Of a DNA stretch of 64,000 bases, positions 1 to 60,100 are shown piece after piece (positions within the stretch are counted from its first letter, which is position 1; every line of letters begins with the position of its first letter). The notes beneath the pieces were generated by a model. That model worked only from the letters and a program-made list of their open reading frames with translations, was not told the DNA's origin and did no database searches. A program made the translations under genes and the position numbers. Origin of the DNA: Candidatus Gastranaerophilales bacterium. Lineage in GTDB: Bacteria; Cyanobacteriota; Vampirovibrionia; Gastranaerophilales; Gastranaerophilaceae. The stretch spans positions 282 through 64,281 of the forward strand of contig CALVEN010000007.1 in the NCBI GenBank assembly GCA_944326585.1. The letters are read 5' to 3'.

Positions 1-546
1 GCAGTTTGTACAGGATATAATGAATACGGTAATTGTACAGGGTGGAAATGTGACAATGGTGAAAGTCTGCCAAGCGATTATAATGGTCCTATGACGGAAT
101 GTTCATTTTTTACCGAAGAAGTATTTTTGAATACACTTAGAACAACAAAAATATGCAAAAATAACGCTTATGAACAAGGGTGTTTGCCAAAGGATTTCAG
201 GGGCGCTGATATGGCAAAAAAAGAAGAAAATCCCGATCAGGATTATGATCCGAATAGTACATTTTCGGATTCTCCAGTAAAAAATAGATATCCGGTATTT
301 GTTCTTGCAGATGGTACTTATGTAATAGGTTATGTTAGATATCCTATTACAATGCCGATTTTTGTCGCGGATATAAATGGGACTAAAGGTCCCAACAAAT
401 GGGGATATGATTTATTTGGATTCCAAATTCGAGGTGATTCAAAAAACGGCATAACCAAATTAGTAGATTATAATATCGCTATTGAAAAAGGCGGGAAAAC
501 TTTTCAGCAGATGTATAATGAAGCTTTCAATATTAATGCACAATAA
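1..546 (+). CDS. Prepilin-type (pilin-like) protein paralog, C-terminal part; the 5' end lies outside the window
   Basis: Frame 1 is open from nt 1. The tail (TKICKNNAYEQGCLPKDFRG...ADINGTKGPNKWGYDLFGF...KGGKTFQQM) aligns almost residue for residue with the C-terminal two thirds of the 51211..52137 product. Confidence 0.8.
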   Translation, partial: AVCTGYNEYGNCTGWKCDNGESLPSDYNGPMTECSFFTEEVFLNTLRTTKICKNNAYEQGCLPKDFRGADMAKKEENPDQDYDPNSTFSDSPVKNRYPVFVLADGTYVIGYVRYPITMPIFVADINGTKGPNKWGYDLFGFQIRGDSKNGITKLVDYNIAIEKGGKTFQQMYNEAFNINAQ

Positions 547-14634: not shown

Positions 14635-15723
14635 ATGGACATCATCAGAATAAATGATAATTCAGATAAATTGTATTATATCGGGGGCATTGTCCGCGAT
14701 AAACTTCTCGGCGTCCAAAGTTTGGATGTTGATATTACGTATGTCGGCAATGCTATTGAATACTGCTCAAAATTCGGCGAAGTTATTCAGGAAAATCCTG
14801 ATTTCGGTACGGTACGTGTAAATGTCGGCGGGCGTGCAGTTGATTTTGCGTCCACCCGTGCGGAAGTTTATGAAAAAAAAGGACATTTGCCGGTCGTAAC
14901 TAAAATAGGTTGTTCTTTAAAAGAAGATGTTTTGCGGCGCGATTTTACCGTGAATGCGCTTGCAATGAGTGTTTCTACGGGTGAAATCGTGGATTATGCG
15001 GGCGGGCGTGAGGATTTGAAAAATAAACTTCTCAGGGTTTTGCATGATGAAAGTTTTATTGATGATCCGACAAGAATTATCCGTGCTTTGAAATTTCGCG
15101 TGCGGTTCGGGTTTGAATTGGAAGAACATACAAGACGCCTTCAAGAGGACTATCTGGCGCATATAAATTATGATATGTCTTATAAGCGCGTTAAAAAAGA
15201 ACTTATTGAAACTTTTAATCTTAATTCACAGCGTGCGTTTGAGATTTTTGTGAATGAAGGAATTTATAAGCTTGTTTCGCCTGAAAATTTTGAACTGCCA
15301 AAGATTAATATTGAAGAGCTTATAAAAAAATATCCGGTACAAAATATTTGGCTTGTTTACATAGGGCTTTTGCCGGATTTGTCACGGCTTGAGTTTACAA
15401 AAGAAGAAAGAAAAATTATTGAAGATGCTCGTACAATCGGTGACTTGAAAAATGATTTTGAAATTTATAAGGCTTTTGACGGACTTGCTTCGGAAAGTAT
15501 TTTGCTTTACGGAATTTTAAAGGATATGAGGGCTGTTGTAAGGTATCTTGATACGCTCGCTAATATAAAAATTTCTATAACCGGTGAAGATTTAAAACGT
15601 CTGGGAATTGCACCGTCACCCGAATATCAGAAAATTTTTGATTTTGTTTTGAAAGCAAAACTTGAAAATCCTAAAATTACTTTTGAAGATGAAATTCAGC
15701 TTGCCAAAAATTTTAAAAATTGA
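14635..15723 (+). CDS. cca: tRNA nucleotidyltransferase / poly(A) polymerase family (CCA-adding enzyme)
   Basis: Motifs GGIVRDKLLG, DVDI, RRDFTVNALA. ATG 14635 preferred over the track's TTG 14599. Confidence 0.8.
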   Translation: MDIIRINDNSDKLYYIGGIVRDKLLGVQSLDVDITYVGNAIEYCSKFGEVIQENPDFGTVRVNVGGRAVDFASTRAEVYEKKGHLPVVTKIGCSLKEDVLRRDFTVNALAMSVSTGEIVDYAGGREDLKNKLLRVLHDESFIDDPTRIIRALKFRVRFGFELEEHTRRLQEDYLAHINYDMSYKRVKKELIETFNLNSQRAFEIFVNEGIYKLVSPENFELPKINIEELIKKYPVQNIWLVYIGLLPDLSRLEFTKEERKIIEDARTIGDLKNDFEIYKAFDGLASESILLYGILKDMRAVVRYLDTLANIKISITGEDLKRLGIAPSPEYQKIFDFVLKAKLENPKITFEDEIQLAKNFKN

Positions 15724-15792
15724 TATAATAAATTCAAAAGGAGAATGATAGATATGACTAGTTTGAATAACGGGGGGGGGCGACTCTCCTAA
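15721..15792 (+). promoter_or_regulatory. Pilin-family expression cassette 1: extended -10, SD, ATG, poly-G, premature stop
   Basis: TGATATAAT 15721-15729; AAGGAGA 15738-15744; ATG 15745 and 15754 (in frame); G9 15772-15780; TAA 15790-15792. Short frame encodes M(ID)MTSLNNGGGRLS*. Confidence 0.7.
15772..15780 (+). repeat. G9 homopolymer (candidate slipped-strand tract)
   Basis: Nine consecutive G in an AT-rich context, at the same relative position as the tracts at 38022, 43499, 51035 and 60113. Confidence 0.95.
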
Positions 15793-15926
15793 GTAGACAG
15801 GACAAGGGTTTCGGCGGTATTGGTTTAGTAAAGTTACTAAGATACTATGGCACTAAGGCACTAAGAAGTAACATTCGTCATGGTAAGGCGGATCAATATA
15901 GTTGTATTCGCAGGGAACCTGTCATC

Positions 15927-17087
15927 TTGAACTGCCTGAGGCACGACAACATACTGGGCATTGGTCAACCTATAAACGTCATCCCGCATTTATTGCGGGA
16001 TCTCAATAAAAATATCAAGAGATTCTTCGCTGGCGCTCAGAATGACAAAACCGTGAGAAATGTAGGTCGCCTTTACTATGCCGACAGAAAAATTAACAGT
16101 CGGGTTAGTAAACCCGACCTACAAGTGACTATGGCTCAGAATGACATAAATACCTTCCCTCGCCCTACGGGAGAGGAATTAAGGGAGAGGGGGCTATCAG
16201 CTTATGATGAGATTTTGAAACGAGTTCAGGATGACAGAGTAGTGAGCGGAGCTCACAGTAAAGAACTTAACGTCCTAACGTCTTATCGTCTTAACGGCTT
16301 TAAAAAGAAAGCCGGTGCTACGCACGTAGACATGTCAGGCAACATTCGTTGTGCTGCGTTTACCCTCGCCGAGGTGCTTATCACCCTTGCCATAATCGGT
16401 ATTGTAGCAGCTTTGACTATTCCGACTCTTATAACGAATTATCAGAAAAAACAGACTGCATCAAAATTAAAACAAACATATTCAATAATCTCTCAGGCGC
16501 TTACAATGGCTCAAGCAGAGCATGGCGACACCACAACGTGGGAAGTTGCAGGAATTTACGATACTCCTACGAATGATACTAATTTTAATCATGAAGATGC
16601 AATAACGAAATTTACTACAAAATATTTTATGCCATATGTAAAGGTGGCAAAAGATTACGGGTACACGCAATATTCAAAGATAGGTTATGATGGTGACTAT
16701 CTTCCCGCCACAGGTCTTATTTCAAACAGTCGCAGTGCTTATGGGTATATACTGCTTTTATCCGGTAATGTTTTAATTAGAATTGGAATCGGAACCGGGT
16801 GTCTGAATAACGAGATAAATCCGGACGGTACTTGTGTTACTCGAACATACAAGAATATAGTATTCAAAGTGGATATAAACGGTTTTGACAAACCTAATGT
16901 GATTGGCAAAGATGTTTTTAATATGACGTTTGATTTACGCAAAAAAGTTTTCGGATTTCATAATTACGGTATAAGTACAAGACAGCGGTATTTGGATAAC
17001 TGTAAAAGTGATGAAGATGCACAAGTCTGCGGGTATCTGATATTTTTAGACGGATGGGAAATCAAAGATGATTATCCGTGGTTTTAG
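15927..17087 (+). CDS. Prepilin-type N-terminal cleavage/methylation-domain protein (pilin/pseudopilin-like), paralog 15
   Basis: AAFTLAEVLITLAIIGIVAALTIPT class III signal/hydrophobic helix at residues ~145-170 of the track ORF. C-terminal VDINGFDKPNVIGKDVF motif shared with paralogs. The frame stays open upstream to the G9 tract. Internal ATG 16332 gives a conventional MSGNIRCAA|FTLAE leader. Confidence 0.85.
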   Translation: MNCLRHDNILGIGQPINVIPHLLRDLNKNIKRFFAGAQNDKTVRNVGRLYYADRKINSRVSKPDLQVTMAQNDINTFPRPTGEELRERGLSAYDEILKRVQDDRVVSGAHSKELNVLTSYRLNGFKKKAGATHVDMSGNIRCAAFTLAEVLITLAIIGIVAALTIPTLITNYQKKQTASKLKQTYSIISQALTMAQAEHGDTTTWEVAGIYDTPTNDTNFNHEDAITKFTTKYFMPYVKVAKDYGYTQYSKIGYDGDYLPATGLISNSRSAYGYILLLSGNVLIRIGIGTGCLNNEINPDGTCVTRTYKNIVFKVDINGFDKPNVIGKDVFNMTFDLRKKVFGFHNYGISTRQRYLDNCKSDEDAQVCGYLIFLDGWEIKDDYPWF

Positions 17088-20307: not shown

Positions 20308-20414
20308 TCCATTACCAGTATAACTCGTTTTTGAAAGTATTTCAAGAATGATATCAAGAAATATGATTAGAATTTGGGATATATAGAAATTGTACTGCGC
20401 GCCGTAGACGGCGT

Positions 20415-21342
20415 ATCTACAATAGTAGAAATTTAGTATAGGTATTAAACCGGCAATTATACAATGCACTGCGGTGGCGATCTACAATAGTAGAAATTTA
20501 ATATAGGTATTAAACTCGTGGAGTAAATCAACGTGCTTGCCCATCTACAATAGTAGAAATTTAATATAGGTATTAAACAAATAGAATCATCAAAAGGCAC
20601 CTTTTAATCTACAATAGTAGAAATTTAATATAGGTATTAAACATGGTTCGTCTGCCTTATATTCGCTTCGGATCTACAATAGTAGAAATTTAATATAGGT
20701 ATTAAACTTCAAGACCGCCAAACATGCCCAAAATATCTACAATAGTAGAAATTTAATATAGGTATTAAACATTGCGTCAAACCTTGGCAACGGCAAATCT
20801 ACAATAGTAGAAATTTAATATAGGTATTAAACAGGAAGATTATGAACAACAAGAAGAATAATCTACAATAGTAGAAATTTAATATAGGTATTAAACAAAA
20901 AATCATGACAATAATACACGCTTTATCTACAATAGTAGAAATTTAATATAGGTATTAAACATCAATTTTGCAACAGCAAGTATCAGTGATCTACAATAGT
21001 AGAAATTTAATATAGGTATTAAACATGACAAGATATGAAGATAGTTTCGTCTATCTACAATAGTAGAAATTTAATATAGGTATTAAACAGCCGAAGCGAG
21101 CCTTCACACACTGGAGGATCTACAATAGTAGAAATTTAATATAGGTATTAAACGAGGCTATGGTAGTTTCTGGCGATGTATCTACAATAGTAGAAATTTA
21201 ATATAGGTATTAAACAAATGAATGCATATCTTGATACGGCGGAATCTACAATAGTAGAAATTTAATATAGGTATTAAACAACTCTCGGGCATCAATGCTA
21301 CTTCATATCTACAATAGTAGAAATTTAATATAGGTATTAAAC
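20415..21342 (-). CRISPR. Type V-A CRISPR array, 15 repeats and 14 spacers
   Basis: 36-nt repeat, minus-strand reading GTTTAATACCTATATTAAATTTCTACTATTGTAGAT. This carries the Cas12a crRNA handle AAUUUCUACU-AUU-GUAGAU. Repeat starts on the + strand: 20415, 20480, 20543, 20607, 20672, 20735, 20797, 20861, 20925, 20989, 21053, 21118, 21180, 21244, 21307. Spacers are 26-29 nt. The leader-distal repeat (20415-20450) has one substitution. Confidence 0.97.
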
Positions 21343-21479: not shown

Positions 21480-21755
21480 CTAATCTACTATTATTATATC
21501 ACTTTCTTCATTTTTTAAAAAGCCATATTTAGAAATTTTACAATTTTCACTTGTTTCTATTATTAAAACACTATCAGTTTGTTTAAATAAATTTTTAAAA
21601 ACACTATCTATTTCATTTTTTATAATATCTAATAATCGTTTGCTATTTTGTATTTTATATACAGAAAATTGCATTCGGTTCCCGTATTTTCGTAAAAATT
21701 TTGAAAATTGTGTTCTTAATTTATCATCCGCTATATCATAACTTACTAATATCAT
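21480..21755 (-). CDS. cas2: CRISPR-associated endoribonuclease Cas2
   Basis: MILVSYDIADDKLRTQFSKFLRKYGNRMQFSVYK is a canonical Cas2 N-terminus. 4-nt overlap with cas1. Confidence 0.92.
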   Translation of the reverse strand: MILVSYDIADDKLRTQFSKFLRKYGNRMQFSVYKIQNSKRLLDIIKNEIDSVFKNLFKQTDSVLIIETSENCKISKYGFLKNEESDIIIVD

Positions 21756-22710
21756 AAGACCGCCTTTGGGAATTTATTTATATCATCATCTTTCATAAAC
21801 CATCTGTAATATTGTTGTATAAAATCAAAAATATTTTCTTTATAATTCAATATTTCTTCTAAAATTTGACAAACAAAATTGTTGCTGTCTTTCCAATCTA
21901 ATTGATATTGTTCTTTATGTTGTGTAAATTTATAATTTTCTATTTGTTTTAAATTTATCATTTTCCTTATTTTATAATCCACAATAGGTCTAAATGGTTC
22001 TATAATATCGCATACTAAAGATTTTCTTTTATAAAATTCTTTATGTAAATTACCTTTATAAATGTCAAAACCGTATATGTTTAATATTGCTTCTATATAA
22101 TTAAATAATACAGTATACCCTATATCTAAAAGTAAATTTATTTTATCTCTTTTTACTCTCGGCTGGCGTCCCTGCCAATCAAAAGGTTTAAACATCCTAT
22201 TAAAATAAATTTTTGCACATGTTCCCTCAATGCCCATAATTTCGTAATTATTATAATCAGACTTTGATAATTTATTTATTGAATCATTTAATTTTTTTAT
22301 TCCGTCTTTAAATTCTTTATCTCTTAATTTCTTTAAAAAATTTCTTTGATTAGATATTTTATTTATAATCAATTGCTTCGCAATTTCTTCACTGCGAGTT
22401 GTTATATATTGTTTTTCATGAAGTAAAAAATTACCTTCCAATACAAAATTTATTGTTGAGTAAACTTTAAAACCGGGTGTAAATAATACTATTGAAAATC
22501 CAAATTTTTTGCTCCTTGAAATTATTCCGCTTGTTAAGGTAATACCACCAACTATAAAAAGTGCAAATAAATTATAGCAACTTAATTGAAATTTAATTTT
22601 ATCTTCTTTGTCAAAGATTACAACATTATCATTTTTGAAGGAAATTTTGTCCCTTCATGCGTAAAGACAATTATAACTTTTTTCTCTAAAAAATCTGGTT
22701 TGGTCAGCAT
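21752..22710 (-). CDS. cas1: CRISPR-associated integrase Cas1, interrupted by a 1-nt frameshift near codon 23
   Basis: ATG 22710 overlaps the cas4 stop (ATGCTGA) and encodes MLTKPDFLEKKVIIVFTHEGTK. The -1 frame continues ISFKNDNVVIFDKEDKIKFQLSCYNLFALFIVGGITLTSGIISRSKKFGFSIVLF... into the track ORF 21752..22441. One extra A in the A4 run at 22645-22648 would give a 319-aa Cas1. Confidence 0.88.
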
Positions 22711-23264
22711 AATAAACTCCTGTCACAGCTTGGTTCATATATACAATTTTTACATTTGTCTATATTTTGTGCTTTAAATGTATGAATATCAAAATCGTGA
22801 ATATCCTTGATTAACTTTCGGAATTTGTTATCAGTTTCTTGGTCTTCTTTAGGGAGTTTGATGTCATAATTTTTATTATCTTTAATACTGTGAAATCTTA
22901 TTTTTTTAACTTCATAACCCATCTCAATTAATGCATAATATTGTGCATATAATTGAAATACATAACCGTCGTATATTTTTATTATTTTATTCTTTCGTTC
23001 GGTTAAAATACCTGTTTCTATATCAAATGTATCAATCTTTCCGGCAATATTAAATTCTGAACAAAATATGTTTATTCCCTGTAAAATAGTTTTTTTATCC
23101 GAATATAATTGTTTGTCAATTGTCTTATGAGCATTAGTTCCTGAAGTTTGTTTTGTTGATTGATACACAGATTTTTCTAATGTCCCGTATAACTTATGAA
23201 AATAAATTGATACGGGACAAAAGATAAAATCATTTAGATATGAGATTAATATTGTTTCTTCCAT
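22704..23264 (-). CDS. cas4: CRISPR-associated exonuclease Cas4
   Basis: N-terminal Cys (FCPVSIYF), RecB-like D...ERK core, C-terminal CKNCIYEPSC cluster. 1-nt overlap with cas12a (TAATG). Confidence 0.9.
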   Translation of the reverse strand: MEETILISYLNDFIFCPVSIYFHKLYGTLEKSVYQSTKQTSGTNAHKTIDKQLYSDKKTILQGINIFCSEFNIAGKIDTFDIETGILTERKNKIIKIYDGYVFQLYAQYYALIEMGYEVKKIRFHSIKDNKNYDIKLPKEDQETDNKFRKLIKDIHDFDIHTFKAQNIDKCKNCIYEPSCDRSLLC

Positions 23265-26200
23265 TATTCACTATCAAGTTCTTGTATATAAGTTAACCAG
23301 TCAGAATTTTTTATTGCATAAGCTATTTTTTCACCTCCATTTGTATGCTTTATACGATTAAGGATAATTAGTCCTTTTCTGGCTATATTATAAGCTCCGT
23401 TCGCGTCAGCATTTTGAGGCAAAGAATTATCACAACATCTTGAATCAAAGAAAAATCCTTTTTTATTTTTTATCGGTGATAATATATAATCTTTTTCGTT
23501 ACCTGTAATACTATTTCTTAATTGTACTAAAAGCTTAAATAAAATTCCAAAACCATTAAATCCGTCTTTTTCGGCAACTGCATTAAAGAATTTTGTATCC
23601 GCCTTGTCAAGTATTTCATTTTTTATGTTTTGATAATCTATATTATATTTATCAAATAAAATTTGAAATTCCTTGGTTAAATTTACGGTAATATTATCCC
23701 ATTCATTATTCTTCTTAGGATTTCGGAATGTTCGTATTCTGTCACCGTATGTACAAAGAGTCCATTCAGTTCTGTTTCCGGAAGATTTATCACTGAAATT
23801 TTTATAATCAAAATTAAATTCAAAATAATTTTCTTGATTATTAAATTTTATAAAATTAAATTTTTTAATAAATTCTTTATCAACTTTTTTTAAATCAAAT
23901 AAATTTACAAAACCCGTAGTCGGATCAATTTTACTCGTCCACACTGCAGGAATATAAAATATTATTCCATTTTGTTTTGTACTATTTATTTCTTTTGTTG
24001 CAAGCTGGTATGCATTCATCAATCCGCCCTGTTCAAATTTGTTTTGAATTGATTTATCAACAAGATAACTTAGTTTATCAATTAATTTTGTTTCAAATTT
24101 ATCATATACGGATTTTTCGACTTTTTTTCTTGAATTTTTAAAGCCGCTATTTAAATCTTCCAGTACTATAATGGCATTGTATTTGAACATTAAACGGGTA
24201 AGTTCATGCACAACCTGACTCATATATCCTTCTTTTAATTCTTTTATGTTTTGAATAGTACCCCACGATTTTCTATTGGCATCTCTTTCGGCCTCTTTTC
24301 TTTCGAGTAAATCATGGTAATTTGTATTTTCGATTATATTTAAAGAACGTTGTTCAATAATTTCACCGTTCATGTTGATAACGCTTATGTATAGAAGATG
24401 TCTTTCGCCTCTATCAATACCTATAATGTGAATATCATCAGAGTTTTTAATTTCATTGTTTGTAAAATCATTTAATTTGTTTATGTTTTGTGCTTTAAAA
24501 TTCAATGTAATCGGAACATGGAACTGAAATTTATCCAATGTAAATCTTTTATCTTTGATTAAATCATATTCAAAAGTACTGTATTTTTTAGGATTATCAG
24601 GGTTTTTATTTTCAATGGGTTCATTTTTAGGATGAGTTACTTTTGTTTCAATACTCTTTTTTCTGTAGAAAATTTCCGCTCCGCCGTTTAATTGATATAT
24701 GACATCTTTTAAGTTGTCTGCATCAAATAAGGCTCTCCAATACATTGTATGCAGATTCGGACGACCTTTTGAATATTTTGAAAAATCTTTGTTATAAATT
24801 TGGAAAAGATAAAGTTTACCTTCTTCTACAAGTTGATTTATGTAACTTTCAGAAATATTTGTAAAAGAAATTTTATATCCTTGCAGCTCAACTTCCCGAT
24901 AAAATTGACTTATATCTTGATATGTATTAGTATCCGAAAATTTAAAGTTGAATTTTGACCAGTCTTCATGCTTATTTATAGATTGTTTATAAAAATCTAT
25001 TAGTTCATGACAAAATCCTAAATCAAAATTTGCTCCTTTTTTATATAATCCTTTTTCATATTTGGCTATCAATTCATCGGAAGGATTAAATTCTTCTTTT
25101 CTGGAGTCTGAAAATAATACTTTTGGAAGCATTTTATTGGGACCGGGAAGCAATTTATATTCTATTTTTTCATAATATGATAAAGCTGACTCTTTATCAT
25201 TATTAATAAAAATTTTTCTGTTATTTTTATTGATAATTCCAATGTAATAATTTCCGTCTTTAATTAACAATGTCCCTAAATTTGCTTCTTCTTTATTCAA
25301 GTCCCAGCCGCTTAAAAAAGTAGGGCAATCAAAATTAAGTTTAAATTTTTCGACAGAATAAGGTTTTTTGGTTAAATAATTTCTTGTTTTGTTATAAACC
25401 GGAATTATTTCAGATAACAGTTCATAATTAAGCGAATTATAAAATTCTAAATCTGTTTCAATTGATTTGTTTTTCGGAATAAGGTGTTTTATAAGCATCT
25501 GTACATTTTTTAGTGAATCAAGGAAATCTTTTATTTTTTCAACTGCTTTTTTGTCTTGTATCAATTGTGTAGATGTTTCATCATATTCTTTTTCAAGTAT
25601 AGGTTTTACTTCAGAATAAGTTTTATCTATGAGTTTAAAATGTTCATTTATTTTATCTTTAAAATAGTTATAAAGTTTACCTTCATTGTTGCTATCTTTG
25701 TCATATTTTGATATAAGTTCTTCAATTCTATAAAGTGAAATTTCTTTAATTTTTTTTAATTCGTTATCTTTTTTGTCTGTATATTTTTCTGTTCCGTAAG
25801 CCAGTTTACCTTTATAATTATTGTCATATTCCATACTCAAAAGATAATTAATATAGCCCCAATCTTTGTAGATATTTTGGCTTATTCCTGTATTATCATC
25901 CAGAATTAAATAAATTTCTTCTGTATTATAGTTAGATATATTTTCAATAACATTTTCAAATGATTTATTTTCTATGAAAGCATCAGAAAATATTTTAAAA
26001 TAGTTATTAATGAGCTCAGTTACCTGTTTATCAGATTCAATCGTATTAAATTTAAAAGAAACAGAATTTGCATCACTTAAAATTTGCTTATAAAGCTGTT
26101 TTAATTTTGGGATTTTAATTTTTGTATCTTGAATATATTTATTTACTATTTCATTTATACCCTGTATTTTTTTATCATTTGTTGCTTTTCCGGAAATAAT

Positions 26201-26923
26201 AAGATTATATTCTTCAATTTGCCTTTGATTTAAAACATGTGTATAATTTTCAACGGTAGAAAAATATTCATCACAATCAAGTCCTAAATTTTGTTTTATT
26301 GTGTTTTTTATTTCAGGAATATTTTCTGAAATTTTATTAAATGCTTTAATATTCTTTAAATAAATAGGCAGATTTTCATTAATTAACCTGTAAGCTATAG
26401 ACGTATGTTTTTCTTCATTTGAATACATATTTTTTCGGTTTGTATCAAAACCTGAAAAATACGTTGTGAATTTTTCAAACACTTTTATTTCTTCAAGGAT
26501 TTCATTGTTGTTTTTATAATATTCTTGTAAATTTTTATTAATCATGTCTTTTCCAAAAAGAGTATTATATTTGGAATTCTTAGTAAATCTATCGGAAATT
26601 TTTTGACGTAATAATTTTTCTATACTTGAAAATTCTTTTTCTTCTTTTTCAGATAAATTTTGGCGGTTAAAAAATTCTGTATATTGTATTAATAAACATT
26701 TAAAATTTTCATCATTAAAATTATCCAAACATTCATTAATGAAATATTTATGATATTCATCACAATATTTTTTAATTTTTTGATATAATATCGCCTTTTT
26801 TTCATCTTCTTTTAAAATATATTCCGCAAAATACTCCTTTGTTTTTCCAATCGGAATAAGCTCAAATCTTAAAGTTTTTGAAACTTTAAATAAATTGTGA
26901 AAACAGTCATAAAAATTTTTCAT
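23264..26923 (-). CDS. cas12a: Cas12a (Cpf1), type V-A effector, 1219 aa
   Basis: N-terminus FKVSKTLRFELIPIGKT. RuvC-I IGIDRGERHLLY, RuvC-II IVLEDLNSGFK, RuvC-III DADANGAYNIARKG. AGGAG lies 6 nt before the ATG. The repeat type matches. Confidence 0.95.
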   Translation of the reverse strand: MKNFYDCFHNLFKVSKTLRFELIPIGKTKEYFAEYILKEDEKKAILYQKIKKYCDEYHKYFINECLDNFNDENFKCLLIQYTEFFNRQNLSEKEEKEFSSIEKLLRQKISDRFTKNSKYNTLFGKDMINKNLQEYYKNNNEILEEIKVFEKFTTYFSGFDTNRKNMYSNEEKHTSIAYRLINENLPIYLKNIKAFNKISENIPEIKNTIKQNLGLDCDEYFSTVENYTHVLNQRQIEEYNLIISGKATNDKKIQGINEIVNKYIQDTKIKIPKLKQLYKQILSDANSVSFKFNTIESDKQVTELINNYFKIFSDAFIENKSFENVIENISNYNTEEIYLILDDNTGISQNIYKDWGYINYLLSMEYDNNYKGKLAYGTEKYTDKKDNELKKIKEISLYRIEELISKYDKDSNNEGKLYNYFKDKINEHFKLIDKTYSEVKPILEKEYDETSTQLIQDKKAVEKIKDFLDSLKNVQMLIKHLIPKNKSIETDLEFYNSLNYELLSEIIPVYNKTRNYLTKKPYSVEKFKLNFDCPTFLSGWDLNKEEANLGTLLIKDGNYYIGIINKNNRKIFINNDKESALSYYEKIEYKLLPGPNKMLPKVLFSDSRKEEFNPSDELIAKYEKGLYKKGANFDLGFCHELIDFYKQSINKHEDWSKFNFKFSDTNTYQDISQFYREVELQGYKISFTNISESYINQLVEEGKLYLFQIYNKDFSKYSKGRPNLHTMYWRALFDADNLKDVIYQLNGGAEIFYRKKSIETKVTHPKNEPIENKNPDNPKKYSTFEYDLIKDKRFTLDKFQFHVPITLNFKAQNINKLNDFTNNEIKNSDDIHIIGIDRGERHLLYISVINMNGEIIEQRSLNIIENTNYHDLLERKEAERDANRKSWGTIQNIKELKEGYMSQVVHELTRLMFKYNAIIVLEDLNSGFKNSRKKVEKSVYDKFETKLIDKLSYLVDKSIQNKFEQGGLMNAYQLATKEINSTKQNGIIFYIPAVWTSKIDPTTGFVNLFDLKKVDKEFIKKFNFIKFNNQENYFEFNFDYKNFSDKSSGNRTEWTLCTYGDRIRTFRNPKKNNEWDNITVNLTKEFQILFDKYNIDYQNIKNEILDKADTKFFNAVAEKDGFNGFGILFKLLVQLRNSITGNEKDYILSPIKNKKGFFFDSRCCDNSLPQNADANGAYNIARKGLIILNRIKHTNGGEKIAYAIKNSDWLTYIQELDSE

Positions 26924-28439: not shown

Positions 28440-28835
28440 TGGTGGAGACGGTGGGACTCGAACCCACGTCCAAAATGGACCAACATAAACCTCTACGTGT
28501 GTAGATACTCATTTTCTCGGCTGATTCAGGAAAGTATCACTACCCTTAAATCAGCCAAAGTATTTTTTTCGGAAATACTTAACCTTTAATGGTTATCTTG
28601 ATACGCCTACCATCATCAACGTACTGCGTCTTGCATAAGTGGACCCCAACAGCCGGCAAGCTGGGCTATTGAAGTGGCTGACTGCGTCTTACGCAGCAAG
28701 AGCGTATGCTCTTGAAAAATCAGCTTTAATTACGTTGTCTTTAGCATTTAATTTGCTATGCTCGTTGATAACCGAGAACAGCGCTCGGACACGCAGCTTA
28801 TATCAATCATCATCCTGTCAAATCCGGACGTCCCC
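28440..28835 (-). ncRNA. ssrA: tmRNA (SsrA), one-piece
   Basis: 5' GGGGACGTCCGGATTTGACAGG. 3' GACGTGGGTTCGAGTCCCACCGTCTCCACCA. Acceptor stem GGGGACG/CGUCUCC with G3:U. Tag reading frame AKDNVIKADFSRAYALAA* (GCT AAA GAC ... GCT GCG TAA). Confidence 0.93.
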
Positions 28836-37968: not shown

Positions 37969-38063
37969 TGATATAATAAACCCAAAACAAGGAGAGTGTT
38001 GATATGACTAGTTTGAACAACGGGGGGGGGCGACTCCTCCAGGTACAGATAGCAAGGTTTTAG
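37969..38063 (+). promoter_or_regulatory. Pilin-family expression cassette 2
   Basis: TGATATAAT 37969-37977; GGAGAG 37991-37996; ATG 38004; G9 38022-38030; stop TAG 38061-38063. Short frame encodes MTSLNNGGGRLLQVQIARF*. Confidence 0.7.
38022..38030 (+). repeat. G9 homopolymer
   Basis: Nine G. Position equivalent to the other four tracts. Confidence 0.95.
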
Positions 38064-38239
38064 GCGGTATTGGTTGTGTAAAGTTACTAAGATACTATGG
38101 CACTAAGGCACTAAGAAGTAACAGAAAAGTAGGTCGGCATTACCATGCCGACAGAAAAGTTTACTGTCGGGTTAGTAACCCTGACCAACGCGTTACAGAA
38201 AGAATTGACACAACCCCTGAAACAAATTATAATTCTAAT

Positions 38240-39079
38240 ATGATAAACTATAAATCAGAAAACAAAAACGTGAGAGAAGTTCAGTGTAACCACACCCCTC
38301 ACTCTACTCACTCGACTCAAGCAAAACGTGTCGCGTTTACTCTGGCGGAGGGTGCTACGCACGTAGACATGTCAGACAACATTCGTCGTGTGGCATTCAC
38401 TCTGGCGGAAGTTTTGATAACCCTTGCCATAATAGGTATTGTGGCAGCTGTGACAATTCCGACGTTAATAACAAAGTATCAAGAGAAGCAGACAGTAACA
38501 AGGTTTAAGTGGATATATTCAACATTAGCGAATGCTTTCACTATGGCTGTTGCGGAAAACGGGGCGCCTGAAACTTGGGATTTGAATAGTGCTGAAGATA
38601 TGGCAAATATTTTGTCAAAATATATGAGAATTAGTGAAAAATGTTATAATACCGCTGGTTGTTTGCCTCCGGATTTAAATATTGTTGCATTGACTGGCGA
38701 AATGCGTTATACATTACCCGGCAATGCAAATTATGTAAAATCACGTTTTAATAACGGCATAAGCCTTATGTGGTTTGAGCCTCATAAAGGGTGCAGTTAT
38801 TCTTATATTGATACTGATGGCAACCAAATAGATGTAGAAAACAGTTGCGGCTCTTTGTACGCTTTTATCTCAACGAATCGTACAAACAGATATGGTCTTG
38901 ACCATTTTGTTTTTACAGTTACACCGAAGGGAATATTGCCGGGCGGTTATGATTATAATGACAGCAATATAAAGCGGAATTGCACAAAAAATTGGACATC
39001 CGATGGTAATACAAATGGTGCTACCTGCGGGGAATGGATAAGACGCTGGGGTAATGCGGATTATTGGTATGATAATTAA
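38240..39079 (+). CDS. Prepilin-type N-terminal cleavage/methylation-domain protein, paralog 38
   Basis: RRVAFTLAEVLITLAIIGIVAAVTIPTLITKYQEKQT. The frame is open upstream to the G9 tract. Internal ATG 38369 gives MSDNIRRVA|FTLAE. Confidence 0.85.
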   Translation: MINYKSENKNVREVQCNHTPHSTHSTQAKRVAFTLAEGATHVDMSDNIRRVAFTLAEVLITLAIIGIVAAVTIPTLITKYQEKQTVTRFKWIYSTLANAFTMAVAENGAPETWDLNSAEDMANILSKYMRISEKCYNTAGCLPPDLNIVALTGEMRYTLPGNANYVKSRFNNGISLMWFEPHKGCSYSYIDTDGNQIDVENSCGSLYAFISTNRTNRYGLDHFVFTVTPKGILPGGYDYNDSNIKRNCTKNWTSDGNTNGATCGEWIRRWGNADYWYDN

Positions 39080-43440: not shown

Positions 43441-43510
43441 TGGTATATTATAGAAAACAAGGAGAGTGCAAATGGAAGATATGACTAATTTGAATAACGG
43501 GGGGGGAGCG
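43441..43510 (+). promoter_or_regulatory. Pilin-family expression cassette 3 (in frame)
   Basis: TGGTATATT 43441-43449; GGAGAG 43461-43466; ATG 43472 and 43481; GGGGGGGGAG 43499-43508. There is no stop afterwards. Confidence 0.7.
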
Positions 43511-44608
43511 ACTCTTCTAAGTAGGCAGGACAAGGGTTTTGACGGTATATTTTGGGAAAAGTTACTAAGATACTATGATACTAAGGCAGTAAGAAGTAAC
43601 AGAAAAGTAGGTCGGCATTACTATGCCGACAGAAAAGTTTACCGTCGGGTTAGTAAACCCGACCTACAAGAGAATATGGCTCAGAATGACAAGAATATCA
43701 TCCCTCGCCCCTTGGGGAGAGGGTGTCACGAAGTGACAGGAGAGGGGCTAAGTGACAAAAATGTGAGCAAAGCTCACAGAAAACGCTTAGTGCCTTACTG
43801 CCTTAGTAACTTAGTATCTTCACAAAAAGCCGCGTTTACCTTAGCAGAGGTTTTGATAACCCTCGGCATAATCGGTATTGTGGCAGCGATGACAATTCCG
43901 ACACTTATTACGAATTATCAGGAAAAACAAACAATTTCCAAATTACAAAAAGTCTACGCGTCTTTAAAGAATGCATTTGAACTTGCAAAAGTTGAGCATG
44001 GTGATTATGAAACCTGGTCGTGGAATCAGATTCCTGTAACCAATGGCGCGCGAACACAATATTTTTGGGAAACATATATTTTCCCGCATTTAAAGATTGC
44101 TAAAAAATGTTTCCCGATAACAACGGAATGTGTCGCAGAGGGTATTACAAAATTGAATGGTACGGCTGAATCTGTTGTTACATCTACACATGGTGCTTTT
44201 GTTTTATATGACGGTACATATGTTTATACGTGGGCTGGAGGTTCCGGTTTTCATCCGCATATTTGGGTGTATGCTGATATCAACGGTGAGGCAAAGCCAA
44301 ACGTGGTAGGCAAAGATATATTTACTATGTTTTTCTCGCCAAAAAATCCAGGGAATAAAATCGGCTCGTTTGATGACGATAATAATTTTGTTGACTCAGG
44401 AAAATTATCAACCCCTGCTTACGGATTAAGTTTGTATGGAGATGTAAACGGGGTTACCGTTGAAGATCTTATGGATCCGAATTTTGTTCTGGAAACTGAC
44501 ACAGGTGCCAAGCAAAAACATTGTTGTACCACAGAAGGCACAGGGTATATGTGCGGTGCGGCAATAAAATTAAACGGCTGGAAATTTCCCGACGGTTATC
44601 CCAGATAA
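43472..44608 (+). CDS. Prepilin-type protein, paralog 43; the whole long leader is in frame with the cassette ATG
   Basis: Single ORF MEDMTNLNNGGGATLLSRQDKGF...QKAAFTLAEVLITLGIIGIVAAMTIPTLITNYQEKQT...ADINGEAKPNVVGKDIF. Confidence 0.85.
   Translation: MEDMTNLNNGGGATLLSRQDKGFDGIFWEKLLRYYDTKAVRSNRKVGRHYYADRKVYRRVSKPDLQENMAQNDKNIIPRPLGRGCHEVTGEGLSDKNVSKAHRKRLVPYCLSNLVSSQKAAFTLAEVLITLGIIGIVAAMTIPTLITNYQEKQTISKLQKVYASLKNAFELAKVEHGDYETWSWNQIPVTNGARTQYFWETYIFPHLKIAKKCFPITTECVAEGITKLNGTAESVVTSTHGAFVLYDGTYVYTWAGGSGFHPHIWVYADINGEAKPNVVGKDIFTMFFSPKNPGNKIGSFDDDNNFVDSGKLSTPAYGLSLYGDVNGVTVEDLMDPNFVLETDTGAKQKHCCTTEGTGYMCGAAIKLNGWKFPDGYPR
43499..43506 (+). repeat. G8 homopolymer followed by A-G (an interrupted 10-nt tract)
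   Basis: GGGGGGGGAG occupies the position where the OFF copies have G9. Confidence 0.95.
43517..43872 (+). repeat. 356-bp leader cassette, apparently identical to 51052..51407
   Basis: A by-eye base-by-base comparison found no mismatch between the two intervals. The flanks diverge at once on both sides. Confidence 0.8.
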
Positions 44609-46368: not shown

Positions 46369-49300
46369 ATGTTAAATATTGATTGTTTATCCGGTGAAAA
46401 ATTTTTAGAATACAGAGATTATGTTAAAAAATCATGGTCTTTTGCGGTTACGGGGTTAACTTCGCTTTTAAGGCTTTTGTTAGTCAAAAATGCCCGTGAC
46501 TATTCTAAAAAGAAGATTTTACTTGTTACATCAACCGAGCAGAATGCATTAAAGTTTCAAAACGATTTTAAAAGAGGTTTTGATATTGATGCCGCGTTAA
46601 TTCCTTTTCAAAATATTTCAATGTATGAAGGAGTTTCGCCGAATTTGTATGAATATTTTGAGCAGATAAAAATTTTGCGGCAAAAACCTGATTTAGTTAT
46701 TTGTCCCGTTAAAACCTTGCTTGAAAAGTTTCCGGATGAAGAATTTTTTGAGAAAAATTCTTTAAAAATAAAAGTAGGCGATGAGGTTAATTTAAAAGAA
46801 TTAAGTCAAAAGCTTGTTAATCTCGGATACAAACGCGCCACTATGGTCAGTGATATAGCTGAATTCAGCATAAGGGGCGATATTGCGGATATTTTTTCAC
46901 TGGACGATAACCCTGTAAGAATTGAATTATGGGGAGATGAAGTTGTAGACATCAGGTATTTTAACAATGAAACTCAAAAATCAGTCGAAAAGGCAAAAGA
47001 GATTGAGATTTTACCTGTATATAAATTTGTGCTTGATGAAAACAGTCCGAAACTCAATGAAGAAGACGAAGGGTATTTTGAAGGGATTGAAGTTTATCAG
47101 AATTATTTTAATGACAACCTTGTCGGGGTTTTGGATTATTTAAAAGATTATATAATTGTTTTTGACGAAACGTCCGAAATTTACTCAAAATATGAATTTG
47201 TTGCGCAGAATTTGGAAAAACAGCTTGAAGAAAATTCGAAACTTGAGCTTTTAAAACCGTTAAAGGGCAAAAATCATTTTACTTTTGAAGAATTTTTGAG
47301 AAAAACGTCTTATTTTGTAAAAATCGGTCTTAATAATTTTATAGACGGCGAAATGGATGATATTATTGAATTTAATGCCATGCCGCTTCAAAATTTTGAG
47401 GCGAATTTAGATGCAATAGCCGATTTTATAAAAGAACATAGCCCTCTGGGAGAGGGAAGAATTTCAACGCAAGGAACTAGCGTTAGAAATTCGGGTGAGG
47501 GTGGATACAAAATAATTGTTGCAACGGATTACCCTGAACGTGTCAAGCAAATTTTGAGTGAGCGGGAAATATTTGACGTTGAATATACTGAAAGCCTTGC
47601 AAGCGCAGGATGTATTCTTGAGGATTGCAAAACAATTGTAATGACCGATAGAGAGCTGTTTAATAAACGTTCCAAAGAAATCACCGCGGCAAAACGTTCA
47701 TATTACAAGGAAAAACCGGAATTTATCGAAAATATAAATGATATTCAAGAAGGAGAATACGTTGTTCATACAATTCACGGGGTCGGGATTTACAGAGGGC
47801 TTACCCAGCAGGAGATTGACGGGCAGCTGAAAGATTACCTGACAATCGAATATGCTGCAAAAGACAGGCTTCACATCCCTGCAGAACAAATTAACATGCT
47901 TGTCAGATACCGCGGCTCCGGAAATATCAAGCCGAAACTTTCCAGAATGGGCGGTAAAGATTGGGAAAACACTAAAGCCAGGGTTAAAAAAGAAGTTGAA
48001 GCTGTTGCGTATGACCTTTTAAGGCTTTATGCAAGACGAAAAATGCAAAAAGGATTTCAGTTTTTGCCTGATACCACATGGCAGGTGGAAATGGAAGAAG
48101 CCTTTGAATTTGTTGAAACTCCCGATCAAATGCGTGCAATAAACGAAGTCAAGGCTGATATGGAAAGTGATGAGCCTATGGACAGACTAATTTGCGGGGA
48201 TGTGGGTTTTGGTAAAACTGAAGTTGCAATGAGGGCAATTTTTAAAGCCGTAACTTCCGGCAAGCAGGTGGCGGTTGTTGTTCCTACGACTATTCTTGCG
48301 CTTCAGCATTTTCAAACAATGTCTGAAAGGTTTAAGCCTTTTGGAGTTCATGTTGAATTGCTTTCAAGGTTCAGGAGTAAAAAGGAGCAGAAAGACACCG
48401 TAAAAAATCTTGCAACCGGCTCTTGTGACGTGGTAATCGGAACCCACAGGCTTTTGCAGGACGGAATTGTATTCAAAGATTTGGGGCTTCTGGTAATTGA
48501 TGAAGAACACAGATTTGGAGTAAGACATAAGGAAAAACTTAAACAACTGCGTGAAAATATTGATATTATAACGATGTCGGCAACGCCTATTCCCAGAACC
48601 CTTTATATGTCGTTATCTGGAATTAAAGATATGTCGGTTATTAATACTCCTCCAAAAAACAGGCTTCCTATAAAAACCTATGTCGGCGAGTGGAATGAAA
48701 ATATGGTTAAAAATGCCATTATCCATGAGCTTGACCGCGAAGGACAGGTTTTTTATCTTTATAATCGTGTTGAAACTATTGAAGAATTCAAATTTCATCT
48801 GCAAAAACTTGTCCCCAATGCCCGAATTGCCGTAGGACACGGACAGATGGACGAAAAACAGCTTGAAGAAGTGATAGTCGATTTTGCAAACCATGAATAT
48901 GATATTCTTCTTGCAACAACAATTATTGAAAACGGAATTGATATTCCTAATGCAAATACAATGATTATCCATGATGCCGACAGATTCGGACTTGCGCAGT
49001 TGTATCAATTAAGAGGCCGTGTCGGTCGTTCCCAAAGACAGGCTTATTGCTATTGTTTTTACAGAAAAAGTAAAGAGATTACAAAAGACGCAGTACACAG
49101 ATTAAAAGCCATAAAAGAGTTTACAACACTCGGAAGCGGTTATCAAATCGCATTAAGGGATGTCGAGATAAGAGGGGTCGGGAATATTCTCGGCACCAAG
49201 CAGCACGGCCATATGATAAATGTCGGTTTTGATACATATTGTCAGCTTCTTGAAGAAACTGTTCAGGAGCTGCAAGGTCATTATGTGGAAAAATCCGAAC

Positions 49301-49773
49301 CCACTATTGTTGATATAAATGTAACGGCATTTATTCCGGATGAATGGGTTGGGTCTGCCGATCAAAAAATGATAGAATACAAACGTCTGGCGGATGTAAA
49401 ATCTCAGCTTGAATTGGATTATATAACCGAGGAGTGGAAAGACAGATTTGCAAAACCTCCCGAAAGCGTTGAAAATTTAATAAAATTAATCAAAATCAGG
49501 CTTGCCGCAACCGATGTAAAGATTTCGCTTATACGTGAGACTTCTGAAAATATAAGGATTTATACTCCATTCACCCAGCCCGAGTGGAATATAATTCAAA
49601 AAGCGCTTCCCGGGAATATATTAAAACGTATTAAGTTCACGCTTGCGCCGAAATCTTGTGAGGAAGGCAATTCAATTGTTTTATTAAACAATTCATATAT
49701 GAATTTTGATGAAGTATTTAACATTTTAACGGATTTGTTTTATTATATTTATAAAGTCAGTCATGAATATTAA
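46369..49773 (+). CDS. mfd: Transcription-repair coupling factor Mfd
   Basis: CarD-like EGEYVVHTIHGVG. Helicase motifs GDVGFGKTEVAMRA, DEEHRFGV, MSATPIPRT. TRG motif region. Length 1134 aa. Confidence 0.95.
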   Translation: MLNIDCLSGEKFLEYRDYVKKSWSFAVTGLTSLLRLLLVKNARDYSKKKILLVTSTEQNALKFQNDFKRGFDIDAALIPFQNISMYEGVSPNLYEYFEQIKILRQKPDLVICPVKTLLEKFPDEEFFEKNSLKIKVGDEVNLKELSQKLVNLGYKRATMVSDIAEFSIRGDIADIFSLDDNPVRIELWGDEVVDIRYFNNETQKSVEKAKEIEILPVYKFVLDENSPKLNEEDEGYFEGIEVYQNYFNDNLVGVLDYLKDYIIVFDETSEIYSKYEFVAQNLEKQLEENSKLELLKPLKGKNHFTFEEFLRKTSYFVKIGLNNFIDGEMDDIIEFNAMPLQNFEANLDAIADFIKEHSPLGEGRISTQGTSVRNSGEGGYKIIVATDYPERVKQILSEREIFDVEYTESLASAGCILEDCKTIVMTDRELFNKRSKEITAAKRSYYKEKPEFIENINDIQEGEYVVHTIHGVGIYRGLTQQEIDGQLKDYLTIEYAAKDRLHIPAEQINMLVRYRGSGNIKPKLSRMGGKDWENTKARVKKEVEAVAYDLLRLYARRKMQKGFQFLPDTTWQVEMEEAFEFVETPDQMRAINEVKADMESDEPMDRLICGDVGFGKTEVAMRAIFKAVTSGKQVAVVVPTTILALQHFQTMSERFKPFGVHVELLSRFRSKKEQKDTVKNLATGSCDVVIGTHRLLQDGIVFKDLGLLVIDEEHRFGVRHKEKLKQLRENIDIITMSATPIPRTLYMSLSGIKDMSVINTPPKNRLPIKTYVGEWNENMVKNAIIHELDREGQVFYLYNRVETIEEFKFHLQKLVPNARIAVGHGQMDEKQLEEVIVDFANHEYDILLATTIIENGIDIPNANTMIIHDADRFGLAQLYQLRGRVGRSQRQAYCYCFYRKSKEITKDAVHRLKAIKEFTTLGSGYQIALRDVEIRGVGNILGTKQHGHMINVGFDTYCQLLEETVQELQGHYVEKSEPTIVDINVTAFIPDEWVGSADQKMIEYKRLADVKSQLELDYITEEWKDRFAKPPESVENLIKLIKIRLAATDVKISLIRETSENIRIYTPFTQPEWNIIQKALPGNILKRIKFTLAPKSCEEGNSIVLLNNSYMNFDEVFNILTDLFYYIYKVSHEY
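47441..47504 (-). mobile_element. GC-rich palindromic element lying in frame inside mfd
   Basis: GCCCTCTGGGAGAGGGAAGAATTTCAACGCAAGGAACTAGCGTTAGAAATTCGGGTGAGGGTGG. Its reverse complement shares CCCTCACCCGAATTTCTA...GAAATTCT.CCCTCTCCC with the intergenic copy at 63672..63726. Confidence 0.7.
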
Positions 49774-50952: not shown

Positions 50953-50973
50953 CTTGCCAAAAATTCTAATTTT

Positions 50974-59948: not shown

Positions 59949-60100
59949 TAAATGCGGGATGACGTATAAGGATTGTCCAAGCTCAAGTGTAATGTCCTGC
60001 CTTTGGCAGTGCGGGATGACGTTTATAGTTTGTAGATTTATTTTTTCACAAAGATTTTTATTTTTTTGAGATGCTGAAACCAGTTCAGCATGACCGGAGG

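Follow-up and report, generated by a model that had tools for sequence, protein, structure and literature searches.

Poly-G tracts and in-frame palindromic repeat arrays in the leader-coding regions of pilin-like genes of a Gastranaerophilales bacterium

Introduction

Contingency loci that vary through homopolymers or other short repeats are known from several bacteria, examples being the poly-G tract of pilC and the CTCTT repeats in the leader-peptide coding regions of opa in Neisseria, and the poly-G genes of Campylobacter jejuni. The leaders of class III (prepilin) signal peptides are normally 6-30 amino acids (aa) long. The Gastranaerophilales are widespread, uncultured, non-photosynthetic relatives of the cyanobacteria in human and animal guts, and to our knowledge their cell surface is almost uncharacterised. 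Here we describe five complete genes for pilin-like proteins (loci A to E) in a stretch of 64,000 nucleotides (nt) from a Candidatus Gastranaerophilales bacterium (contig CALVEN010000007.1), which is referred to as the window throughout this study. In each of these genes a poly-G tract lies a few codons past the start codon, and an unusually long, stop-free leader-coding region composed of GC-rich palindromic modules lies between this tract and the pilin part. An original prediction for locus A, made from the sequence alone, had noticed the open leader and its modules, and had left two options side by side, namely that the modules are translated into leaders of about 100-200 aa, or that they form a structured 5′ untranslated region (UTR). 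It had not recognised the role of the G tract, which is that of a frameshift switch inside the open reading frame (ORF).

Prepilin leaders have been reported to comprise 6-26 aa, with a Gly at position −1 that is invariant in bacteria (Berry and Pelicic 2015, PMC4471445), and they stay in the cytoplasm and are cleaved off on that side of the membrane (PMC4471445). The motif of class III signal peptides has been given as [KRHEQSTAG]-G-[FYLMIV]-[ST]-[LT]-[LIVP]-E (quoted in PMC8578077), and the genes pilD, pilB, pilC and pilT have been reported in ‘Ca. Gastranaerophilus termiticola’ (PMC5877343). In the account of Ogata et al. 2000 that is given in PMC10969869, the Rickettsia palindromic elements (RPEs) are sequences of about 150 nt that are inserted in frame in protein genes. 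Our literature search found no paper on phase variation in Melainabacteria, on DUF6613, or on prepilins with very long leaders.

Results

Start signals and a poly-G tract precede the leader in all five genes

All five genes of the window begin with a near-consensus extended −10 promoter, a strong Shine-Dalgarno (SD) sequence (AGGAGA) and an ATG that is located 6-13 codons 5′ of a G8-G11 tract, and in all five cases this tract lies within the ORF on the gene's own strand (Table 1). The promoter TTGCCA-17-TGATATAAT, which matches the consensus at 11 of 12 positions, is common to loci A and D. The N-terminus MTSLNN-GGG that is found in A and B is conserved across B, C and D and in the in-frame database proteins P0038, P0162 and P0164. 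No signals comparable to this promoter, SD sequence and ATG were found near the FTLAEV motif at which the pilin part begins, and loci C, D and E lack any start codon within the 13 codons that precede the Phe of this motif.

At locus C the ATG, the tract, the entire leader and the pilin form one ORF of 378 codons. At A, B and D (G9) and at E (G11) the start codon is one G short of the frame of leader and pilin, and the ATG frame closes 3-10 codons 3′ of the tract; one added G (G10 in the case of locus A) would join the ATG to the frame of leader and pilin. As the ATG of locus A misses the frame of the leader by one G, it does not give translation of the long leader in the assembled sequence, in which the locus is off. 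Both wrong frames of the tract-bearing paralogs reach a stop 1-15 codons after the tract, and at locus A the stops for both of them are supplied by TCCTAAGTAG, directly 3′ of the tract. When the tract is repaired, the ATG and the Phe are 121-202 aa apart in the window genes, the distance from tract to Phe being 112-196 codons.

The paralogs are scattered among housekeeping genes, their neighbours including cca, a nagZ-like gene, grpE/dnaJ, aroA, mfd, a SurA-like gene, hydF and speE, and each is its own transcription unit. A sixth pilin paralog at 91-546 (+) is cut by the start of the window; the DNA of its C-terminal part is 71-89% identical to that of locus D. At locus B the cleavage motif is duplicated, positions 38306-38395 encoding …KRVAFTLAE-GATHVDMSDNIRRV-AFTLAEVLITL with a ‘decoy’ AFTLAE at about 38333-38350. 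A GATHV…IRR module lies inside this repeated AFTLAE, and its in-frame ATG would give a canonical leader of 9 aa. Duplications of the decoy type were also seen in P0015, P0018, P0045, P0067 and P0091, and some database proteins have two or three repeats.

Table 1. Coordinates of the pilin-like genes, their leader modules and related repeats in the window. Off and on refer to the assembled sequence; a slash marks the predicted cleavage site.
Feature	Position	Strand	Remarks
Locus A, promoter	15701-15729	+	TTGCCA, 17-nt spacer, TGATATAAT (extended −10); 11/12 consensus matches, with TG
Locus A, Shine-Dalgarno sequence AGGAGA	15739-15744	+	
Locus A, start codon ATG	15754-15756	+	
Locus A, poly-G tract (G9)	15772-15780	+	Frameshift switch; ortholog L082 likewise G9
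Locus A, TAA closing the ATG frame in the assembled (off) state	15790-15792	+	Yields peptide MTSLNNGGGRLS
Locus A, TAG closing the third frame	15794-15796	+	Visible in TCCTAAGTAG
Locus A, AAGGGTTTC (K-G-F), remnant of old cleavage motif KG/FTLAEV	15804-15812	+	Array begins after it; from L083/L084 comparison
Locus A, module array	15813-16358	+	In-frame chain of palindromic and octamer-repeat modules, 45% G+C
Locus A array, octamer repeats	15833-15872	+	
Locus A array, hairpin	15978-16001	+	
Locus A array, listed module pair	16035-16046 and 16134-16145	+	
Locus A array, double hairpin	16062-16122	+	
Locus A array, module	16157-16176	+	
Locus A array, module	16242-16256	+	
Locus A array, octamers	16266-16297	+	
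Locus A array, GATHVDMSGNIRCA module	16312-16355	+	Internal ATG at 16334
Locus A, pilin-like protein after predicted cleavage site	16359-17087	+	FTLAEVLITLAIIGIVAALTIP…, 242 aa; including stop codon
Locus B, promoter of same architecture	37969-37977	+	
Locus B	38004-39079	+	ATG 38004; G9 38022-38030, off, needs +1 G; leader to 38395; F at 38396
Locus C, sole on copy	43472-44608	+	ATG 43472 or 43481; leader to 43834; F at 43835
Locus C, interrupted tract GGGGGGGGAG	43499-43508	+	G8 (43499-43506) then AG
Locus C, 35-nt inverted octamer modules	43559-43593 and 43786-43820		
Locus D, promoter of same architecture	50954-50982	+	
Locus D	51008-52137	+	ATG 51008 or 51017; G9 51035-51043, off, needs +1 G; F at 51370
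Locus E, promoter of same architecture	60197-60189	-	
Locus E	58923-60160	-	ATG 60160-60158; leader to 59678; F at 59675; module set differs
Locus E, tract	60123-60113	-	G11 (C11 on plus strand); off, needs +1 G
Intergenic palindromic element	57575-57641		GCGTCATTCTGAGAGC…GCTCAGTATGACGC; GCTCAGAATGAC arm common with leader modules
Leader-type hairpin outside pilin gene	63718-63737		CCCTCTCCCTCTGGGAGAGGG
26-nt exact match to leader A outside pilin gene	63824-63849		

The pilin frame is the only open frame of the leaders

Between the tract of locus A and the motif AAFTLAEVLITL, with its Phe codon at 16359, the pilin frame contains no stop in 196 codons and the other two frames contain 18 stops each. 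The pilin frame is stop-free from 15771 to the gene's own TAG at 17085. Dinucleotide-preserving shuffles of the 578 nt of this region had a mean of 11.5 stops, and none of 5000 shuffles had zero. When stops were counted over all leaders, the pilin frame had none in any of the five paralogs and each of the other frames had 9-18; for each of the leaders of B, C, D and E, the probability of zero stops in such shuffles was ≤0.0008. These counts bear out what the original prediction had noted, namely a single open frame that continues into the pilin, at locus A and in all five complete paralogs, and every module that had been listed for locus A was present. The accompanying statement that each paralog carries a different set of modules is correct for E and does not apply to C and D, the leaders of which share 99% identity along 300 nt.

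With more than 7500 relatives in the databases, the family of these genes is very large; it is characterised by the domains N_methyl (PF07963) and DUF6613 (PF20318), and it was found in metagenome-assembled genomes of Candidatus Gastranaerophilales (Melainabacteria) from human and animal guts. Since the GTDB representatives gave a best tblastn match to the window genome of only 55%, orthologs were taken from ENA contigs; scans of JGI metagenomes with two patterns for the 5′ end gave 0 matches, the clade being represented in ENA and NCBI assemblies. For comparisons across genomes we used 80 GTDB loci plus the window, the stretches being about 8 kb long. These 81 stretches contained 109 pilin paralogs, 44 of which, from about 40 genomes of Gastranaerophilales, have a tract of at least G8 within 750 nt upstream of FTLAEV. 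The pilin frame is stop-free from tract to motif in 41 of these 44 paralogs, the other frames having on average about 7 and about 5 stops. Tract and motif are 20 nt apart at the shortest (NHGGGASSRLKA/FTLAEV in L014) and 601 nt apart at the longest, and the spacing is also only 20 nt in L020, another short-leader paralog with a tract. The existence of such short spacings indicates that the basic design is a G tract in a short leader-peptide coding region, and that the long leaders arose from it by expansion.

Full-length in-frame forms of the type M..NNGGGATLLSRQDKGF…KKAAFTLAEV are numerous in public protein sets, and their leaders reach up to 216 aa. The in-frame database relatives of locus E start with MGANTHHDYFSLRGGGSSLTS… (P0068, P0081, P0103), and minimal relatives have a leader of 19 aa (P0177). 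Taken together, the 41 open frames, the in-frame database proteins and the promoter, SD sequence and ATG upstream of the tract favour the option that leaders of about 100-200 aa are translated, with the restriction that this applies only when the G tract is in phase, and at locus A as assembled it is not. We also noted that gene callers often start the off-frame copies either at spurious upstream ATGs, running through promoter and SD sequence (MWYIIENKESENGSYDYFEQRGG…, MKRRYSFAFIWEIRGG…), or at an internal Met, as seen in P0002, P0138, P0145, P0188 and others. With starts called at such wrong sites, the database N-termini of this family are systematically wrong and therefore unreliable.

Tract length differs between samples

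One syntenic locus, which is flanked by a gene for a 513-aa protein and a CdhD-like gene, was found with three tract alleles in seven ENA samples. The G9 allele is present in four samples, and for its product of 289 aa an internal Met is taken as the start; the G10 allele is present in one sample and encodes 377 aa from the upstream ATG, and an A+G9 allele in two samples likewise encodes 377 aa; these are differences between samples, not within one population. Locus C with its interrupted tract GGGGGGGGAG is on, as opposed to its ortholog L081 with G9, which is off. The allele of locus C recurs in an independent ENA contig (L093, 100% over 2337 nt), and its protein is identical to P0124 in both NCBI and ENA. 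Clusters built at 90% identity hold in-frame and out-of-frame products together. Among 49 non-redundant tract-bearing paralogs from GTDB and ENA, 5 are in frame, 27 are one G short, 9 are one G long and the start is unclear in 8. A large contingency family would be expected to have most of its copies off.

The skew towards copies that are one G short leaves room for a mutational bias of the tract, for under-calling of homopolymers, or for slippage at the level of RNA. In the last case polymerase stuttering or ribosomal frameshifting would give a fixed fraction of in-frame product and ‘one G short’ would be the norm, for which the ratio of 27 copies that need one more G to 9 that need one G less and 5 in frame can be cited, as can the recurrence of G9 at one and the same locus, which two independent assemblies show for locus A and four show for another locus. 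We nonetheless consider this explanation quite unlikely, because alleles that restore the frame in the DNA exist and recur (G10, A+G9 and G8AG), and because some loci with G11 need one G less, so that no single direction of slippage fits all of them. In addition, efficient transcriptional slippage is best documented for runs of A or T, not for runs of G. It would be highly improbable that the frameshifts are homopolymer errors of sequencing or assembly and that all copies are in frame and constitutively expressed. Long G runs are indeed error-prone in short reads and the commonest defect is one missing G, but independent assemblies of the same locus agree on its tract length, G9, G10 and interrupted alleles were assembled at one and the same locus, and some copies need one G less rather than one more.

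Module arrays are gained, lost and exchanged

The contigs L083 and L084 represent a single locus; each has a G10 tract that is in frame, and the leaders are 19 aa and 121 aa long, respectively. The leader of L083 is MTSFNNGGGATPPGRYSKG/FTLAEV (…RYSKGFTLAEV), with Gly at −1; in L084, …RYSKGF is followed by SKIILEKLLRYY…NDFKKKAA and then by FTLAEV. This pair identifies the ‘QDKGF’ that is located 10 codons past the tract in A, C and D as a remnant of the original cleavage motif. The array is placed exactly at this KGF remnant and ends by regenerating …(K/R)(K/R)xA/FTLAEV. As the difference between L083 and L084 reaches the segment that encodes the helix, it represents a recombination patch and not a simple insertion. 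Directly downstream of the pilin paralog, and convergent with it, both contigs carry a gene for a tyrosine recombinase of the phage-integrase family (2277-3191 in L083 and 2583-3500 in L084, minus strand); no recombinase adjoins the five paralogs of the window.

Further ortholog pairs differ in their arrays. L081 does not have the array of locus C at all, its pilin being 99% identical and the junction being located at a TTAGTA direct repeat. L082 differs from locus A by a 51-nt in-frame insertion that is nested in another palindrome and by the replacement of a module of about 95 nt, with a length change of 3 nt. Short direct repeats flank two of these indels (TTAGTA in L081 and GAGATYYTG in L082); they may be target-site duplications, and microhomology recombination is an equally possible origin. 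In the clusters at 90% identity, leaders that range from about 35 to 182 aa are found on one and the same pilin domain. Conversely, the mature domains of C and D, which have nearly the same leader, are only 36-43% identical. Another length change in multiples of three is a 9-nt tandem duplication, GGATTATTA (RIIRII), which lies in frame within the double-hairpin module and sets L088, L090, L091 and L092 (about 1120-1140 or 1385-1405) apart from L086. Arrays that are absent, exchanged or nested among near-identical orthologs appear to be dispensable.

The original prediction had proposed codon periodicity as a check on the leaders. In comparisons of homologous segments, mismatch rates at codon positions 1, 2 and 3 were 5.5, 5.9 and 7.6% in the leaders, 3.8, 3.0 and 15.7% in the mature domain, and 6.2, 1.2 and 32.4% in the N-terminal helix, showing that the leaders are without the excess of third-position substitutions that is seen in the mature pilin. 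In A a DNA module is read as VILNCLRHDN, and in E the same module is read in another frame, as CHPEVPEARQH. In an AlphaFold2 model of the locus C protein (80 homologs), residues 1-120 had pLDDT values of 40-50 and no secondary structure, and the mature part had values above 90, with a helix at 124-176 followed by a beta-rich domain. A Foldseek search of this model against the PDB gave no match at E≤0.001. Judged from these data, the peptide encoded by the array appears to be unconstrained. The view that the leaders are domesticated mobile elements therefore does not hold up against the presence or absence of arrays among near-identical orthologs, the weak codon-position signature, the reading of modules in more than one frame and the predicted disorder; the arrays look tolerated rather than recruited.

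A DNA inversion switch, for which the 35-nt inverted repeats of C and D made a candidate, was rejected, as the central double-hairpin module was found 7 times in plus and 0 times in minus orientation. In reversed orientation the first frame of this module begins with GTA GGT CGG GTT TAC TAA and thus contains a stop.

The leaders concentrate hairpins

The window contains 13 perfect hairpins that are GC-rich and have a stem of at least 8, and 10 of them are located in the five leaders, which account for 3.4% of the window's length. The G+C content of the leaders is 43-45%, compared to 35.7% for the window as a whole. RNA folding, another check that had been proposed, gave z-scores of −4.6 (A) and −8.0 (C) relative to shuffles, both leaders thus folding much better than shuffled sequences. 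The modules recur in all five leaders as well as at 57575-57641 and 63718-63849, and the same peptide modules occur in hundreds of database leaders. Copies outside genes had been predicted at 57535 and 63669 and do exist, at slightly different positions (Table 1). Copies had also been predicted inside mfd (46369-49773), and here neither blastn-short nor pattern searches that tolerate mismatches detected any, in mfd or in other ORFs of the window; the GC-rich patches of mfd look like normal, conserved coding DNA. A protein search with leader A gave 69 matches and no other gene family, the matches being pilin-family or leader-bearing proteins only; the 12 that were read among those without a pilin Pfam domain are leader-bearing fragments of pilins. 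At 63690-64000 (minus strand) an open frame that comes from beyond the window end reads through palindromic modules and stops near 63690, and this may be either the C-terminus of a gene that was extended by repeats or non-coding sequence.

In searches of the window against Rfam only the transfer-messenger RNA (tmRNA) reached the gathering score, and nothing was found at E≤1 for positions 15700-16420, so that no known RNA family explains the leader. For the best-sampled hairpin, of 61 nt, a covariation check gave 1 compensatory pair and 12 broken cells from only 7 distinct copies; 221 of 500 shuffles scored as high. A conserved RNA structure is thus not supported, although this sample is too small to exclude one. 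The region has strong hairpin potential, and in this respect the second option of the original prediction, a structured 5′ UTR, is not contradicted; the two options do not exclude each other. If the region were a UTR, the G-tract ORF would be a regulatory upstream ORF and the true start would lie a few codons before FTLAEV, for instance at ATG 16334 in A (MSGNIRCAA/FTLAEV) or at a GTG in the LVPYC of C, D and E. In favour of this, A and B have an in-frame ATG 8-9 codons before the Phe that would produce a canonical short leader, the database entry P0207 (MSDNIRRVAFTLAEV) is called from an internal ATG, the region folds far better than shuffles, and the upstream ATG is out of frame in most copies. 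On the other hand, a UTR gives no reason for a pilin frame that is stop-free in 41 of 44 paralogs where the other frames carry about 5-18 stops, the internal ATG has neither SD sequence nor promoter, the last 13 leader codons of C, D and E are without a start codon, indels between orthologs are multiples of three, and there is neither an Rfam match nor covariation in the best-sampled hairpin. We hold a structured UTR with such an internal start to be very improbable.

Neutral repeats in a translated leader are not the sole way to account for the arrays. They could be functional and selected, as a recombination scaffold by which cassettes of promoter, tract and leader move between about 100 pilin paralogs, as an insulator in the mRNA structure that makes the off state tighter, or as a cytoplasmic propeptide with its own role. 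The concentration of modules in the leaders would agree with this, and so would the common leader of C and D on divergent pilin domains, for which many database proteins offer parallels, the extension of the L083/L084 recombination patch into the coding region of the N-terminal helix, and the 35-nt inverted repeats that bracket the array in C and D. We consider such selection possible but rather unlikely, since arrays are absent from orthologs with 99%-identical pilins, since they show no codon-position signature, no covariation and predicted disorder, and since L014 and L020, with 20 nt from tract to motif, indicate that the switch works without an array. An unlikely, more elaborate scenario would make the arrays part of a combinatorial surface variation, in which a cassette of promoter, tract and leader is shuttled by gene conversion among about 100 paralogs, on/off state and leader are reassorted with surface domains, and a basic propeptide of 100-200 aa, which would be a class III signal peptide without precedent, is released in the cytoplasm by prepilin peptidase, with programmed +1 G slippage of RNA as an alternative or additional component. 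That this cassette would be bounded by the inverted octamer repeats and the invariant helix-coding segment is a similarly speculative suggestion.

Features of a class III signal peptide

The Pfam profile N_methyl (PF07963) matched the proteins of A, C and E with 24.5, 22.3 and 25.1 bits, respectively, relative to a cut-off of 21.2, and in the repaired protein of locus A the match covers residues 199-221. The sequence FTLAEVLITL(A/G)IIG(I/V)VAA does not vary among the five paralogs or among 80 aligned homologs, and the Phe at +1, the Glu at +5 and the stretch of about 20 hydrophobic residues are all present. The leaders of the window genes fall outside the range of 6-30 aa that applies to class III signal peptides. 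Among the long leaders that are in frame the median net charge is +10, and such basic leaders would fit cytoplasmic retention under the positive-inside rule (PMC4471445). Short-leader paralogs have either Gly or Ala at −1. The 64-kb window does not contain pilD.

Other features of the window

A CRISPR array at 20402-21342 consists of 15 repeats with a spacing of 62-65 nt, and the minus-strand repeat ends with …AATTTCTACTATTGTAGAT, which is of the Cas12a type. The array is adjoined by a gene for a Cas12a/Cpf1 protein of 1219 aa (23264-26923, minus strand) with RuvC_1, REC1, NUC and Cpf1 PI domains, and two small ORFs beside this gene (within 21752-26923, minus strand) may be adaptation genes. 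The tmRNA gene is located at 28440-28835 on the minus strand (Rfam RF00023, 135.6 bits).

Discussion

The present comparisons make it likely that the five genes are single-gene contingency loci with a translational poly-G switch in the leader-peptide coding region, in which repeats are tolerated provided that they leave the frame open. Transcription would start from the extended −10 promoter and translation from the SD-preceded ATG 6-13 codons 5′ of the tract, which would contribute Gly-Gly-Gly to the leader peptide. Slipped-strand changes in tract length would then set the frame. In the right phase the ribosome would pass through the leader into the FTLAEV pilin, and in the other two phases it would stop 1-15 codons past the tract, which for the window would mean that C is on and that each of the other four genes lacks one G and is off. 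The ancestral leader was probably about 19 aa long (M…NNGGGAT…KG/FTLAEV), and palindromic and octamer-repeat elements of the GC-rich kind found in this genome would have accumulated between the old KGF and the regenerated …KKAA/FTLAEV site, with recombination between paralogs copying arrays from one to another. As the start codon lies upstream of the array, only arrays that keep the frame would survive, and selection would be blind to the peptide. The leader would then be a discarded part of the ORF, a basic and disordered propeptide that probably stays in the cytoplasm and is removed by prepilin peptidase. We infer that tract length also switches within populations, that the protein is inserted into the membrane with its leader inside the cell, that PilD cleaves after the Ala at −1, and that the arrays are neutral.

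Several observations weigh against this interpretation. Position −1 is occupied by Ala and not by Gly in 5 of 5 window genes (AAF, VAF or PAF) and in 91 of 91 database leaders of more than 80 aa, position +4 is Ala in all five window genes and not one of [LIVP], and no documented precedent was found for cleavage after Ala at −1 behind a leader of 100-200 aa. Stops in the pilin frame of related leaders, which the original prediction had named as the sign that the leaders are not translated, are absent from 41 of the 44 tract-bearing paralogs, in line with translation, and present in the remaining three (two in L069 and one in L078). A simple random phase does not explain the distribution of tract states, with 27 copies that need one more G, 9 that need one less and 5 that are on. 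Finally, pure neutrality does not predict that 10 of 13 hairpins are concentrated in the leaders, unless insertion is targeted or gene conversion is involved.

There is about one pilin-like gene per 10 kb of the window, each with its own poly-G switch and most of them off in consensus assemblies. A pilin family that bears such switches is a hallmark of stochastic variation of the cell surface under pressure from immunity or phages, which the literature searched does not describe for this phylum. A tenfold longer leader may be tolerable in a class III signal peptide, and confirmed cleavage would widen the range of what prepilin peptidase can process. The leaders would also be a clean natural example of selfish palindromic DNA within an ORF, with an open frame as its sole constraint.

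Compared to the contingency loci of Neisseria and Campylobacter, the genes share a G8-G11 tract a few codons past the start, in the sequence that encodes the export leader of a surface protein; they share changes of one nt that switch the frame, quick stops in the wrong frames, and many paralogs per genome that are mostly off. They differ from the known loci in their host, which belongs to the uncultured gut Melainabacteria, in the very large DUF6613 pilin-like family that is concerned, and in the repeat-derived sequence of up to 600 nt that separates the tract from the mature protein. Like RPEs, the modules are short palindromes that occur both between genes and in ORFs, where the frame is kept and a peptide without evident function is added. 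Unlike RPEs, with their length of about 150 nt, the modules of the window measure about 20-60 nt and are stacked and nested in arrays, and as far as tested they are translated only in the pilin family, at one site before the cleavage site. With class III prepilins the proteins have in common the Phe at +1, the Glu at +5, a hydrophobic helix of about 21 residues, basic residues before the cleavage site and the N_methyl match, and the predicted succession of a long N-terminal helix and a beta-rich domain may resemble type IV pilins. They depart from class III prepilins in a leader of 112-196 codons, counted from tract to Phe, instead of 6-26 aa, in the Ala at −1, and in a globular domain without a match among solved structures. 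A prepilin leader of 100-200 aa, the translation and cleavage of which are putative, is the most surprising element of these genes. The finding as a whole combines two known kinds of system, a contingency locus and palindromic repeats that are inserted in frame.

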